Shown: in pieces, positions 52,792 to 55,387 of the stretch | Numbering within the stretch: position 1 is the first letter of the stretch | Layout: every line of letters starts with the position of its first letter | DNA from: an uncultured Candidatus Saccharibacteria bacterium | GTDB lineage: Bacteria; Patescibacteriota; Minisyncoccia; UBA6257; UBA9933 | Direction of reading: 5' to 3' | Assembly (NCBI GenBank): GCA_964453135.1 | Contig: CAYVOL010000006.1 | Coordinates: forward strand, 1-55,387 | Length of the DNA stretch: 55,387 bases | The notes under the pieces: model-generated | The model's input: only the letters and a program-made list of their open reading frames with translations | The model's database searches: none | Told to the model about the DNA's origin: nothing | Made by a program: the position numbers and the translations under genes

Positions 52792-53324
52792 TCATTCATG
52801 CTGAAAATGAAGCAAAAGAAACGCGGATGATTTCGGCGAATTTCATATTGTCCGAATTTGTCCGCCGCGAGGCGGATTTTTCATCTAAAATCAGCAATCG
52901 CGATTCCCGAAATTCCAGAACCTTGAAAATGATTTTTATTGGGAAATAAAAATCTACATATAGGGTAATAAATAAGTAATTAAGTCAATTAGTACACCAA
53001 ATATTTGATTGATTCTCTAACTAAAAATTAGAGAAAAATTTAAGAGCGTATGGTGGATGCCTTGACATCAAACAGCGATGAAGGACGTGGCGTAGCTGCG
53101 ATAAGCTTCGGGGAGGTGCGTAGCAACCTTTGATCCGGAGATTTCCGAATGGGAAAACCCAATATCGTAAACCGATATTATCATGCCGCTCGACGGCATG
53201 AAGCATACCCGCTGAAGTGAAACATCTCAGTAAGCGGAGGAAAAGAAAATAAAGTCCCGCCTAGCGGGACATATTCCCCAAGTAGCGGCGAGTGAAAAGG
53301 GAAGAGCCCAAACCTGTGTACTTC

Positions 53325-53365
53325 GCACGCAGTTTATAAAGTCAATAACTTTATGGCTTGCGCGC
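53325..53365 (+). repeat. 23S insertion element, copy 1 (H15/H16 region)
   Basis: GCACGCAGTTTATAAAGT-CAATA-ACTTTATGGCTTGCGCGC. Confidence 0.8.
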
Positions 53366-53733
53366 GGAGCGCGCGGGGGTTGTAAGGCAGAAAAACTTTT
53401 AGCTGTTAGCTTCCCGATGGTTAAACATTGGGTGGCTAGTGGCTAAATAATTGGTTACAAATTTTTCTGTTAGCCGAATCAGCTGGAAAGCTGAATCAAA
53501 GAGGGTGAAAGTCCCGTAGGCGAAAACGGAAAAACCAATTTTTTTGTTCTTGAGTACCTCGATGACAGAATGCTTCGAGGGAATCCGCCGGTACTATCCG
53601 GCAAGGCTAAATATGTTTGATGATCGATAGTGAACTAGTACCGCGAGGGAAAGGTGAAAAGTAGGCCCATTAGGCCGTTGAAATAGAACCTGAAACCATA
53701 TGCTTACAAGGAATCGGAGCTCTAACGCGCTTC

Positions 53734-53814
53734 GCACGCAGTTTATAAAGTCCATAAAGTTATAAAGTTCATAAAGCGCTTTATAAAACTTCAAAAACTT
53801 TGTAGCTTGCGCGC
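53734..53814 (+). repeat. 23S insertion element, copy 2 (helix 25)
   Basis: Same termini as copy 1, expanded internal 8-9-nt ATAAAG/CTTT units. Confidence 0.82.
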
Positions 53815-54452
53815 GGAACGCGCAGAGTGACGATGTGCCTATTGAAGAATGAGCCAACGAGTTTAGGTAAATCGTTTGTCTAAATCCTACGGGATGGAGG
53901 CAAAGCGAAAGCGAGTGTTAATAGCGCGTATATAACGGTTTACCTAAGACCCGAAGCCAGATGAGCTTACCCTGGCCAGGATGAAGTCCCGAGAAATCGG
54001 GGCGGAGGTCCGAACCGATTGGTGGTGCAAAACCTTCGGATGAGCTGGGGTAAGGAGTGAAAAGCTAATCGAATCTGGTAATAGCTGGTTCTCTCCGAAA
54101 TAGTTTTAGGACTAGCGCCGTGGCGTAGCCGTGGGGGTAGAGCACTGGATGATTCGTAAAGGCCGAAAGGCCGACGAATCAATCAAACTCCGAATACCGC
54201 AGGCCATATTTCACTAGTCAGACTGTGGGGGCTAAGCTCCATGGTCAAAAGGGAAACAGCCCAAATCATCATCTAAGGCCCCTAAATGCGCGCTAAGTGT
54301 TAAAGGCAGTCGTAATCCATAGACAGATAGGAGGTTGGCTTAGAGGTAGCCATCCTTTAAAGAGTGTGTAACAACTCACTATTCGATGGCGAGTTGCGCC
54401 GAAAATATAGCGGGGCTAAGCAAGCTGCCGAAGACACGGGTGCGCGTGCACA

Positions 54453-54546
54453 GCACGCAGTTTATAAGGTTAAAAGTTTTTAAAGTTTATAAAGTCAAAA
54501 CGCATTTTATAAACTTATAAACTTACAAACTTTGTAGCTTGCGCGC
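54453..54546 (+). repeat. 23S insertion element, copy 3 (helix 45)
   Basis: GCACGCAGTTTATAAGGT...ACTTTGTAGCTTGCGCGC. Confidence 0.82.
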
Positions 54547-55228
54547 TTTGCGCGTGCGCGGTAGGAGAGCATTCTAAATGCGCTGAAGCTTCAGCCGCGA
54601 GGCGGAGTGGAGCGTTTAGAAGAGAGAATGTTGGCATGAGTAACCACAAGCCCGGTAAGAAACCGGGCCCCCGTAAACCCAAGGTTTCCTCCGCACTGGT
54701 AATCAACGGAGGGTGAGGCGATCCTAAGGCAATGGCGAAAGCCGCAGCTGAAGGGTAAGCGGTTAATAATCCGCGCCATCTATGCGGTGCGACGGAGCGA
54801 CGAAGGAAATAAAATCAAGTGTCTTAATGGTTTGACATTGCTGGCTCCAAGAATTGTTGCGCAGGAAAATCCGCGCAATGGCCGGAAACGGCGAAATTCG
54901 GGAGTCGGGAAAATCTCGTTTAATAGCGGGAAATTTGATTGAAGAGCCTTCCAAGAAAAACTTCTAAGCATAACCGTATAGATATCGTACCGGAAACCGA
55001 CACTGGTGGGTGAGGCGAGTAGCCTCAGGGGAACGAGTGATTTTTCCTTAAGGAACTCGGCAAAAAAGCGGCCGTAAGTTCGCAATAAGGCCTCCCCGCC
55101 GAATAGGCGGGGCGCAGCGAAAGAATCCCTGGCGACTGTTTAACAAAAACACAGCTCCCTGCGAACTCGAAAGAGGATGTATAGGGGGTGACACCTGACC
55201 GATGCGAGAAGGTTAACGGTGGCGGTGT

Positions 55229-55371
55229 GCGCATCACACTGCGTGTGATGCTAAATTTAAAATTCAAAAGTTAAAGGTCGAAATTTAGGAATTCCGACAA
55301 AGTCGGAAAACAATAATTTTGATTTTTGCATTTTGATTTTTGATTTTGAGCATCGTGCGAAGCGCGATGCG
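55229..55371 (+). repeat. about 140-nt hairpin insertion at helix 68 with 7-nt repeat arms
   Basis: GCGCATC...GATGCG ends; AAATTCA-type vs TTTTGAT-type arms; central TTCCGAC-AAA-GTCGGAA. Confidence 0.7.
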
Positions 55372-55387
55372 ATTGGGGGTTGTAAGA

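Follow-up and report, generated by a model that had tools for sequence, protein, structure and literature searches.

Repeat-armed hairpin cassettes with common ends at three helix tips of a Candidatus Saccharibacteria 23S rRNA gene

Introduction

Intervening sequences (IVSs) of bacterial rRNAs have been known since 1990 and, to our knowledge, their origin and mode of spread have remained unexplained. IVSs replace the tetraloops of helices H9, H25 and H45, form stems from their complementary ends and are cut by RNase III, and a horizontal or mobile origin has long been suspected, as described in the accessible parts of two reports (PMC4990558; PMC8708148). In CPR bacteria, the 23S sites 23IS2 and 23IS4 carry short (<200 bp) ORF-less non-intron insertions, for which the wording "probably IVS" was chosen (Tsurumaki et al. 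2024, PMC11270868). The window analysed here is a stretch of 55,387 nucleotides from the 613-kb genome of an uncultured Candidatus Saccharibacteria bacterium (G000; the assembly is 95% complete). It raises the question of what kind of element is inserted at three non-homologous helices of a single 23S rRNA gene and begins and ends in the same way each time. We consider it about 60% probable that the three inserts are ORF-less, IVS-type hairpin cassettes that have been moved as DNA between helix tips and that would be excised by RNase III.

Three inserts with common ends in one 23S rRNA gene

The relevant features of the window are:

53030..55387, + strand, 5' two thirds of the 23S rRNA gene (Rfam RF02541, 1330.6 bits; LSU model positions 1-1941), cut by the contig end
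53254..53270, + strand, solitary mini-palindrome GTCCCGC-CTA-GCGGGAC at a helix tip (E. coli ~225)
53316..53374, + strand, cassette A at the helix-15 (H15) place (E. coli 277/290; core 53325-53365)
53725..53823, + strand, cassette B in H25 (E. coli 542/555; core 53734-53814)
54444..54555, + strand, cassette C in H45 (E. coli 1170/1172; core 54453-54546)
55231..55370, + strand, fourth cassette with arms of another family, inserted after E. coli position 1873

Infernal placed the extra sequence of cassettes A to C in the apical part of hairpins (LSU model positions 274-296, 573-600 and 1205-1227). The insert cores have a length of 41-94 nt and loops of 5-8 nt. They share the 15-nt start GCACGCAGTTTATAA (at 53325, 53734 and 54453) and the 18-nt end ACTTTRTRGCTTGCGCGC (53348-53365, 53797-53814 and 54529-54546). 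With up to one mismatch, each terminus matches the window three times, while 0.01 (start) and 0.00 (end) matches are expected by chance (100 dinucleotide shuffles), and exact copies of both termini occur in the entire genome only at the three 23S sites. An earlier note on this DNA had given the same coordinates and ends, and its view that one element family occupies three non-homologous helices with a variable number of 8-9-nt units proved correct. Cassette A has, besides the clamp, a single AGTTTATAA unit in each arm and the loop CAATA, whereas the larger inserts contain about three to five units per arm (clamp and ~4 + 3 units in cassette B, clamp and ~5 + 4 units in cassette C). The shared module had been drawn too short, since the GC-rich clamp belongs to it as well, and the identity of cassettes A and B reaches CTTC-GCACGCAG and GCGCGC-GGAR-CGCGC.

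None of the inserts can encode a protein because they comprise only 41-94 nt, in agreement with the earlier note. The termini are not part of ordinary conserved 23S sequence either: in relatives that lack the inserts, the corresponding tips are short, and the distance between the same anchors is ~30 nt (H15 place), 46-68 nt (H25) and 41-48 nt (H45). The assignment of H25 and H45 as IVS sites agrees with the literature (PMC4990558).

The cassettes are predicted to extend their host helices

Folding of each of the three inserts yielded a single extended hairpin, with minimum free energies of -35.8 kcal/mol for cassette A (z -5.2), -41.8 for cassette B (z -5.2) and -54.6 for cassette C (z -6.4), and none of 200 shuffles was equally stable. 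The predicted fold is one long imperfect duplex that is coaxial with the host helix; it comprises the GC-rich clamp, and AGTTYRTAA units make up its AU-rich arms. The same architecture is present in 27 of 28 cassettes from 15 genomes and two metagenome organisms, the exception being the H25 cassette of G010, which has a branched tip. The fold and palindrome statistics do not include G031_H15, the truncated fourth cassette of G000, the 16S insert and the inserts of more than 300 nt (G028_H25, G027_H45 and G028_H45).

The fold of the rRNA strand is more stable than that of the antisense strand in 25 of the 28 cassettes (mean 9.9 kcal/mol), and the antisense fold is the more stable one in three; for cassette B, the antisense fold is as stable as the sense fold. 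Moreover, the rRNA strands of the 28 cassettes contain 192 G-U pairs versus 102 in antisense. Six cassettes of the AGTTYRTAA family are 96.0% paired as extended duplexes, and the covariation (nine double-change cells, reached by 2 of 500 shuffles; score 0.310, reached by 1 of 500) refers to these six related sequences and to a structure derived from the same sequences. Taken as models of the pre-rRNA, folding, covariation and the sense-strand bias establish that the cassette extends its host helix coaxially by a predicted 24-50 imperfect base pairs.

The clamp is predicted to be dyad-symmetric. Its left and right modules are nearly identical, each being a small palindrome around a 3-nt centre, and they would thus together form a two-fold symmetric duplex. 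For instance, the clamp of cassette C has the left mini-palindrome GCGTGC-ACA-GCACGC and the right mini-palindrome GCGCGC-TTT-GCGCGT. A-C and U-C mismatches are conserved in the clamp. A perfect palindrome of 5 bp or more around a 3-nt centre is present in 38 of 56 cassette halves (shuffle mean 3.97), and both halves are palindromic in 17 of 28 cassettes (shuffle mean 0.19). Both modules were found in 22 cassettes; in 13 of the 18 cassettes with 3-nt centres on both sides, the left and right centres are complementary at all three positions. An alternative fold of the clamp into small hairpins (a four-way junction) is 88.9% paired, but its covariation is no better than that of shuffles and the extended duplex is more stable by 0.6-20 kcal/mol. 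The small hairpins could possibly form transiently or after cleavage.

Excision or retention

The inserts resemble IVSs in several respects. They replace the small apical loop of a surface helix (in two of three cases in H25 and H45), have complementary ends and a long stable stem, and are sporadically present in related genomes. In the classical 23S IVSs of Salmonella, Yersinia, Campylobacter, Leptospira, Coxiella and alpha-proteobacteria, the apical loop of H25 or H45 is likewise replaced by an extended stem-loop; as far as these reports describe them, classical IVSs are also sporadic among relatives and occur where RNase III is available (PMC4990558; PMC8708148). In contrast to the classical IVSs, a same-ended cassette occurs at three helices of one gene and at five tips across organisms, and the tips at E. 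coli ~225, ~280 and ~1873 do not appear among the IVS sites in the accessible text of these reports (PMC4990558; PMC8708148). Furthermore, the cassette arms are tandem 8-9-nt units that are common to intergenic repeats, the clamp is dyad-symmetric, and excision is a prediction in the present case. The CPR insertions surveyed by Tsurumaki and co-workers match the G000 cassettes in organism group, sites, size class and lack of an ORF; they were left uncharacterised there, shared termini are not mentioned in the accessible text, and the main text contains neither the word "hairpin" nor the word "repeat", while the supplements may list the inserts (PMC11270868). No description of shared-end or repeat-armed 23S cassettes was found in the open-access literature.

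We propose that the cassette, a GC-rich clamp with AU/GU-rich arms that are inverted arrays of the 8-9-nt unit AGTTYRTAA, would most likely be cut by the RNase III of the cell when the 23S rRNA matures, either in the symmetric clamp or close to it. The cut would release the distal hairpin, and the clamp would hold together the resulting fragmented but functional 23S rRNA. The number of units may change by slippage, and the two arms may stay in step because pairing is selected for or because repair is templated by the hairpin. The genome has a full-length RNase III gene (C2:89189-89881, minus strand; TIGR02191, 260.7 bits versus a cut-off of 166) encoding the catalytic domain and the dsRBD, and it is plausible that the modelled clamp serves as a common nuclease recognition stem, one of the options raised in the earlier note. 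Cassette A would be a marginal RNase III substrate because it is short (~24 bp with the host stem). In 12 RNA-labelled runs, 10-14% of the sampled words are present. The conserved 23S parts in the best run are at least 92% alike and have joints with the short loops of other organisms, and the presence of the source organism is not established. This run has essentially no cover over the inserts, which has no bearing on excision since the organism may be absent.

Expansion segments of rRNAs are retained and stable within lineages. The cassettes may also be expansion segments of this kind, that is, uncleaved surface hairpins of the mature 23S rRNA that act as a protein-binding platform or that are simply tolerated, and we regard this as possible but rather unlikely. 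The sites are insertion-tolerant surface tips, and E. coli 23S rRNA is functional with insertions at 266-275, 283-291, 542-550 (H25) and 1170-1178 (H45), which are described as the places of ES5L, ES7L and ES15L (PMC2441807). An unprocessed IVS is reported to be compatible with ribosome function (PMC8708148), and the sense-strand G-U bias would fit any constraint at the RNA level. However, RNase III, for which the genome has a complete gene, naturally acts on long near-perfect duplexes, and it is not obvious what a retained arm would need the dyad symmetry of the clamp for. Moreover, the sole survey in print, as far as its accessible text goes, reads short ORF-less inserts at these CPR sites as IVSs (PMC11270868). 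The cassettes have the surface positions and the coaxial helix extension in common with ES5L, ES7L and ES15L (PMC2441807), but they are sporadic, interchangeable between helices and built of repeats.

Repeat units and IVP genes outside the rRNA

Exact AGTTYRTAA units occur 54 times in G000, compared to 15-29 times in ten shuffles. All ten non-rRNA arrays or array sites that were checked are located between ORFs, and seven of them have at least two tandem units. Across the order, the double unit has a patchy distribution: it is present in 43 of 151 genomes and reaches 15-16 copies in G000, G037, G090 and G063 (0-2 copies of the reversed control). In other genera, unit hairpins separate groES from groEL, are placed between r-protein genes and also precede a tRNA. 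It is the inner unit alone that is dispersed in G000; the clamp pair is confined to rRNA, a complete cassette has no copy outside the rRNA of this genome, and the termini are restricted to the three rRNA sites.

Similar arrays surround genes of the PF05635 family (23S_rRNA_IVP), which are present in 28 of 41 relatives with up to eight genes per genome. Inverted arrays of 7-9-nt units bracket 11 of 15 examined PF05635 genes, and in G003, which belongs to a sister genus, the bracketing units are AGTTYRTAA. The matches between cassette arms and IVP-bracketing arrays are short (15-28 nt, E 1e-5 to 4e-3). Of the genomes with cassettes, 13 of 15 have IVP genes above the cut-off, compared to 4 of 13 genomes without cassettes; as kin, these genomes are not independent. 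A comparison of the IVP protein with the DGR protein Avd remained below the cut-offs (22.1 bits versus 80 and 25.2 versus 40). The arms tie the rRNA inserts to the genome-wide intergenic repeat and to the hairpins with IVP genes. The ORF-bearing IVSs and free-standing hairpins with the 23S_rRNA_IVP four-helix-bundle gene (PF05635, TIGR02436) are like the G000 cassettes in that their stems are inverted arrays of short tandem units; in contrast, the G000 cassettes are devoid of an ORF and add a GC clamp, and no PF05635 gene was detectable in the 95% complete assembly of G000.

Because the arms share their unit repertoire with the intergenic hairpins and the IVP-gene hairpins, the 23S copies are most likely non-autonomous relatives of both. 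More tentatively, they may be the gene-less ribosomal form of a class of mobile hairpins of which the autonomous form carries the IVP gene. The IVP protein or a recruited host enzyme would then act as the mover, and the clamp would be a purpose-built site for the dimeric RNase III. It is equally doubtful, though conceivable, that such unit-armed hairpin elements constitute a widespread and undescribed class. If this reading is true, the removal by RNase III via the clamp would make the insertion into an essential RNA harmless, and the origin of bacterial IVSs would be explained. What moves the hairpins, and whether the symmetric clamp is a processing signal, can now be tested directly.

What moves the cassettes

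Nothing in the gene content of G000 explains a current mobility of the cassettes, given that the genome has no detectable IVP gene, no Y1/RAYT transposase and no full cassette outside the rRNA. A search for a Y1/RAYT transposase (PF01797) gave no hit in the 95% complete genome. A common target was not seen by eye at the insert flanks and a target-site duplication was not recognised; since these GC-rich flanks are self-complementary, direct and inverted repeats are indistinguishable there. REP, RPE and MITE-type palindromic repeats, such as the Rickettsia palindromic elements inside genes, spread in small genomes and persist where the host molecule tolerates an extra loop. Like the G000 cassettes, they are short hairpin-forming repeats. 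In contrast to them, the full cassette is confined to rRNA without dispersed same-ended copies elsewhere in G000, and a cognate Y1/RAYT transposase was not found.

It is very improbable that the hairpins spread via RNA and were inserted by reverse splicing or by retro-insertion with the help of a reverse transcriptase. The genome does contain one reverse transcriptase gene (C1:18429-19664, RVT_1 70.8 bits), but the protein is under every subfamily cut-off (group II 120.7 versus 300) and its gene adjoins that of an Lcl_C-domain protein, a layout that we take to be typical of diversity-generating retroelements (DGRs). As this sole reverse transcriptase looks DGR-like, it was dismissed as the mover, and the retro-insertion option of the earlier note received no specific support. 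Moreover, no intron family matches the inserts at the Rfam gathering thresholds, at which the window matches are LSU rRNA and tRNAs only, and 41-94 nt leave no room for a ribozyme-sized core. The inserts were not assigned to the group I or group II introns, as covariance models detected no ribozyme core in them. The ends of the 303-nt H45 insert of G027 had been considered tRNA-like; ARAGORN finds no tRNA in it.

Copies at other helices and in relatives

Other organisms carry cassettes with the same termini and unit order at further helices: G023 at the E. coli-1873 tip, presumably that of helix 68 (H68), one metagenome organism at E. coli ~225 (four records) and another in H45. The H45 cassette of G000 is 92% identical to L172 over 52 nt, including an odd 7-nt unit, the H68 cassette of G023 is 95% identical to the H45 cassette of L173 over 43 nt, and the H15 cassette of G019 is 90% identical to the H45 cassette of G010 over 51 nt. 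A scan of genome contigs with the 15-mer start returned at least 119 stretches; among the 80 loci checked, 79 were chance matches in unrelated phyla and the sole true cassette was L086, which corresponds to G023. Among relatives, the share of genomes with an insert is 7 of 24 for the H15 place, 11 of 24 for H25, 8 of 15 for H45, 3 of 20 for the 1873 tip and 4 of 21 for the ~225 tip. The 'H15' row of G031, an anchor artefact inside its H25 insert, was left out of these counts.

The fourth cassette of G000, with its left mini-palindrome at 55231-55251 and its right one at 55350-55370, has 37 of 37 nt in common with the H25 insert of G023. The solitary mini-palindrome of G000 is located at the tip (E. 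coli ~225) that carries full cassettes in other organisms, and it may be a footprint or a landing pad.

The earlier note had attributed the shared ends to copying, and this holds: they do not reflect conserved 23S sequence because the tips of relatives are short and the same cassette is found at other helices elsewhere. Indeed, with the same cassette at three helices of one gene, and with the cassette or its parts at five or six tips in relatives, copying is hard to avoid. The homology across sites establishes, at the level of sequence comparison, that the cassette has been copied as a DNA unit between rRNA helix tips within and between lineages. That each helix instead grew in place by slippage, with ends made convergent by the demands of a nuclease or another protein, is scarcely credible. 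The unit arrays do change in number. Moreover, other cassette families have a clamp of the same design but of quite different sequence, which makes the likeness functional in part. However, convergence does not yield identity through the arms and the unit order, as seen between the H45 cassette of G000 and L172, or a match of 37/37 nt between cassettes at different helices in different genera.

Assembly and sample

The 3' end of the 23S rRNA gene (model positions 2559-2925) is located at the head of contig C5, and model positions ~1941-2559 are absent from the assembly of G000. In practical terms, such cassettes cause rRNA genes to be assembled in pieces in metagenome bins and lead to overestimates of rRNA divergence. 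That the three inserts are assembly artefacts or chimeras of the metagenome bin is hardly worth considering: the rRNA genes of the bin are indeed fragmented and the last 17 nt of the contig (55371-55387) misfit the preceding helix and resemble the 3' flank of the helix-15 place, but a second assembler reproduces each insert with 0 differences and the same cassette lies within the 23S rRNA gene in five metagenome records from other data sets and two organisms. Logan contigs from three DNA runs, all of a single sample, provide the former evidence; they span each insert with both flanks (53223-53654, 53632-53860 and 54358-54648) and are independent of the assembler but not of the reads, because the sample is the likely source of G000. 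A piece of the 16S rRNA gene was located on contig C3 by cmscan.

Three related inserts at helix tips of the 23S rRNA

The inserts at 53325-53365, 53734-53814 and 54453-54546 are real insertions at the tips of 23S rRNA helices, and their common ends lie exactly where the earlier note had described them. The 15-nt start and the 18-nt end are each matched three times in the window (0.01 and 0.00 matches expected), and a search of the whole source genome G000 recovered only these three 23S sites and no further occurrence. According to Infernal, the inserts are located in the apical parts of hairpins (model positions 274-296, 573-600 and 1205-1227), corresponding by alignment to positions 277/290, 542/555 and 1170/1172 of the annotated E. 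coli 23S rRNA. This alignment puts the second and third inserts in H25 and H45 and the first one between H14 and H16-H18. At the latter place, many bacteria have a helix that is absent from E. coli and that we take to be H15. The insertions described as tolerated in an E. coli transposon study include those at 266-275, 283-291, 542-550 (H25) and 1170-1178 (H45) (PMC2441807). It had also been considered that the copies could be assembly artefacts. Three DNA runs of a single sample were also assembled with a different program, and the resulting contigs cover every insert together with its two flanks at 0 differences, so the inserts are not assembly chimeras; the sample is probably the source sample, and the check is thus not independent of the reads.

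Folded together with its flanks, each insert forms one long imperfect hairpin that is coaxial with the host helix (minimum free energies of -35.8, -41.8 and -54.6 kcal/mol; z from -5.2 to -6.4; 0 of 200 shuffles as stable). Starting from the host helix, the hairpin consists of a GC-rich clamp, an unpaired A opposite C, the five pairs CGCAG/UUGCG, an unpaired U opposite C and AU/GU-rich arms, and both unpaired bases are conserved. The arms are tandem arrays of 8-9-nt units; those of the left arm follow the consensus AGTTYRTAA, and those of the right arm are complementary to it. The claim of a variable repeat number holds, with one unit per arm in the first insert and three to five in the other two. 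The shared module, which we call a cassette, is larger than had been assumed because it includes the clamp. G000 comprises 613 kb on six contigs (about 43% G+C), and the window is the complete 55,387-base contig C6. The rRNA genes are in pieces, since the 23S rRNA gene is split over C6 and C5 and the 3' third of the 16S rRNA gene heads C3.

Cassettes and rRNA gene pieces of the source genome
~53316-53374: cassette A at the H15 place, core plus clamp
~53725-53823: cassette B in H25, core plus clamp
~54444-54555: cassette C in H45, core plus clamp
55231-55370: fourth cassette, of another arm family, inserted after E. coli 1873
53030-55387: 5' two thirds of the 23S rRNA gene (Rfam), truncated at model position 1941, where the contig ends
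Head of contig C5: 3' end of the 23S rRNA gene, model positions 2559-2925
Head of contig C3: 3' third of the 16S rRNA gene

Cassettes in relatives and copying between helices

The 23S 5' region was compared with that of 29 further genomes from the same family or order, each representing a different genus, by cutting out the sequence between conserved anchors at each tip. Tip lengths are bimodal among the relatives. Short tips measure about 30 nt at the H15 place, 46-68 nt at H25, 41-48 nt at H45, 61-71 nt at the E. coli-1873 tip in helix 68 and 16-18 nt at E. coli ~225, and the long ones have 60-300 extra bases. The H15 place carries an insert in 7 of 24 genomes (leaving out one further row that is an anchor artefact), H25 in 11 of 24, H45 in 8 of 15, the E. 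coli-1873 tip in 3 of 20 and E. coli ~225 in 4 of 21. One extended hairpin of common design is formed by 27 of the 28 inserts shorter than 230 nt, the H25 insert of the relative G010 being branched at its tip; within this design, the arm units differ between genomes. In 25 of 28 cassettes, the rRNA-sense strand folds more stably than the antisense strand (mean 9.9 kcal/mol), and G-U pairs number 192 in the sense folds versus 102 in the antisense folds. This bias points to the cassettes being constrained as transcripts and not only as DNA palindromes.

One and the same cassette recurs at different helices and in different organisms. That of the window is found, with identical termini and unit order, at the E. 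coli-1873 tip of the relative G023, at E. coli ~225 in four records of one metagenome organism, and in H45 of a second metagenome organism. Moreover, the fourth cassette is identical to the H25 insert of G023 over 37 of 37 nt.

Cross-helix matches from the all-against-all comparison (L172 and L173 are sequence loci)
G000 H45 and L172: 92% over 52 nt
G023 1873 tip and L173 H45: 95% over 43 nt
L172 and L173: 87% over 90 nt
G019 H15 and G010 H45: 90% over 51 nt

Convergence on a common recognition stem is very unlikely, since it cannot produce such runs of identity through the arms. Judged from these sequence matches, the cassettes have been copied between helix tips, and the earlier inference of copying across non-homologous helices is thereby supported. 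Clamps and arms have also been shuffled: two helices of the relative G007 have the same arms with different clamps, and one clamp is common to G007 H15 and G023 H45.

Symmetry of the clamp

Each clamp module, left or right, is a small palindrome built as stem-GC NNN GC-stem. Counting only perfect palindromes with 5 bp or more around a 3-nt centre, 38 of 56 cassette halves have one (3.97 in shuffles), and 17 of 28 cassettes have one in both halves (0.19 in shuffles). The stem sequences vary widely among cassette families, and the palindromic design is kept. Both modules were recognised in 22 cassettes, of which 18 have two 3-nt centres; in 13 of these, the left centre is complementary to the right one. 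In six cassettes of the window's family, the extended duplex between the left and right modules is 96.0% paired. It contains nine double-change cells, most of which lie in the centre triplet, a number that 2 of 500 shuffles reach; its covariation score of 0.310 is reached by 1 of 500. The alternative that the clamp folds into two small hairpins is less favoured: it is 88.9% paired, lacks covariation and is 0.6-20 kcal/mol less stable than the extended duplex. Because the left module is palindromic and also pairs with the right one, both strands of the clamp duplex read alike, which gives it two-fold symmetry about the central base pair. Such symmetry would suit a dimeric double-strand RNase. 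G000 encodes a full-length RNase III with catalytic domain and dsRBD (TIGR02191, 260.7 bits; cut-off 166).

A solitary mini-palindrome is located at 53254-53270, at a tip where others bear full cassettes, and the relative G008 has a similar one. These could be footprints left where recombination between the left and right clamp modules removed a cassette, or landing pads.

The arm unit outside rRNA and its link to IVP genes

The arm units are common to 23S cassettes, intergenic hairpins and hairpins around genes of the 23S_rRNA_IVP family (PF05635/TIGR02436; IVP genes). G000 contains 54 exact AGTTYRTAA units, compared with 15-29 in ten dinucleotide shuffles, whereas the full cassette, clamp included, is found only in the rRNA of this genome. 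All ten arrays or array sites checked outside rRNA lie between ORFs, and seven of the ten comprise two or more tandem units. The arrays often fill the spacer between co-directional genes and often end a few bases ahead of a start codon. They may serve as processing sites, terminators or promoter elements, or be selfish repeats.

Intergenic AGTTYRTAA arrays and hairpins
C2: 21356-21403, 28403-28447, 29334-29372, 122541-122631
C3: 41951-41990, 56320-56620, 61863-61943, 94501-94536
C4: 42416-42445

A double unit (at most one mismatch) occurs in 43 of 151 genomes of the order. Its copies are very unevenly distributed: G000 and three relatives (G037, G090 and G063) have 15-16 each, another five genomes have 5-9, and most have 0-2; a reversed-pattern control gave 0-4. 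In other genera, AGTTYRTAA hairpins are found in the groES/groEL spacer, between ribosomal-protein genes and directly ahead of a tRNA gene.

A profile search found no PF05635 gene in G000. Such genes are present in 28 of 41 relatives, with up to eight per genome, and 11 of the 15 examined lie exactly between inverted arrays of 7-9-nt units. In G003, an IVP gene of 114 aa (PF05635, 117.9 bits; TIGR02436, 112.6 bits) is flanked by arrays of AGTTYRTAA, the arm unit of the window's cassettes. In G023, the flanking units are similar to those that build the H15 cassette of the same genome. The co-occurrence of IVP genes above cut-off with cassettes (13 of 15 cassette-bearing versus 4 of 13 cassette-free genomes) is a hint only, because kin are not independent and some sites are unreadable in some genomes. 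IVP genes are strikingly numerous in G003, G006, G009, G020 and others, with genomes of 0.5-0.7 Mb, and nearly all lie outside rRNA. The G003 segment bracketed by AGTTYRTAA also contains a 133-aa ORF without Pfam or NCBIfam match (locus L191, 241-642), which suggests a two-gene cargo.

No Y1 transposase was found in G000, and no target duplication was seen at the cassettes. The only reverse transcriptase of G000 (C1:18429-19664, 411 aa) is below every subfamily cut-off and adjoins an Lcl_C-domain protein (C1:20383-21483). We take this arrangement to be the layout of a diversity-generating retroelement (DGR), which the locus probably is; an accompanying Avd/PF05635 gene was not found in G000. 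The likeness of IVP proteins to the DGR protein Avd is below cut-off.

Proposed origin and processing

In classical intervening sequences (IVSs), as described in two accounts, the tetraloops of H9, H25 and H45 are replaced by a stem-loop of complementary ends that is cut by RNase III; their occurrence is sporadic and their origin unexplained (PMC4990558, PMC8708148). The cassettes would be ORF-less relatives of IVP-type hairpin elements that reached tolerated helix tips as DNA, either by entering them or by being copied from tip to tip. By analogy with classical IVSs, the pre-rRNA duplex would be cut by RNase III, leaving a fragmented 23S rRNA held together by the clamp. Unit number may drift through slippage, and selection or hairpin-templated repair may keep the arms in register. 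The earlier observation is thus confirmed and its reading supported, with excision as a prediction; it is extended by the modular cassette family, the genome-wide unit and the IVP link. A search of the open-access literature brought up no account of cassettes with shared ends and repeat-built arms at several helices. A survey of CPR rRNAs reports many short ORF-less non-intron inserts at two sites that match IVS sites, and calls them probably IVSs but does not analyse them further; its main text uses neither the word hairpin nor the word repeat (PMC11270868).

Further observations on the rRNA genes

An extra insertion of about 60 nt at 53392-53454, between LSU model positions 312 and 313 (H16-H18 region), is not of the cassette type. 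The ends of the 303-nt H45 insert of G027 (locus L007) resemble two tRNA halves about 150 nt apart, with a D-arm-like GCCGAGCGG and a T-arm GGTTCGAATCC plus acceptor; ARAGORN calls no tRNA there. The last 17 nt of the window (55371-55387), beyond the right clamp of the fourth cassette, lack complementarity to the 5' strand of the helix that they would be expected to close. They match the sequence 3' of the insert at the H15 place instead, agreeing with 53375-53387 at 12 of 13 nt, and DNA-run depth rises about five-fold in the last bin. This odd end may have arisen when the assembly graph was joined to a similar cassette at a different helix of a co-occurring relative. The 16S 3' end of G000 reads GGAUCAAUUAAACU, without the CCUCC anti-Shine-Dalgarno core. 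In the 16S 3' third (C3:1-580, locus L199), the loop of the hairpin at SSU model positions 1149-1173 is interrupted by a hairpin insert of 129 nt, whose arms of ACGCAGA-like units resemble, by eye, the 23S inserts of the relative G012.
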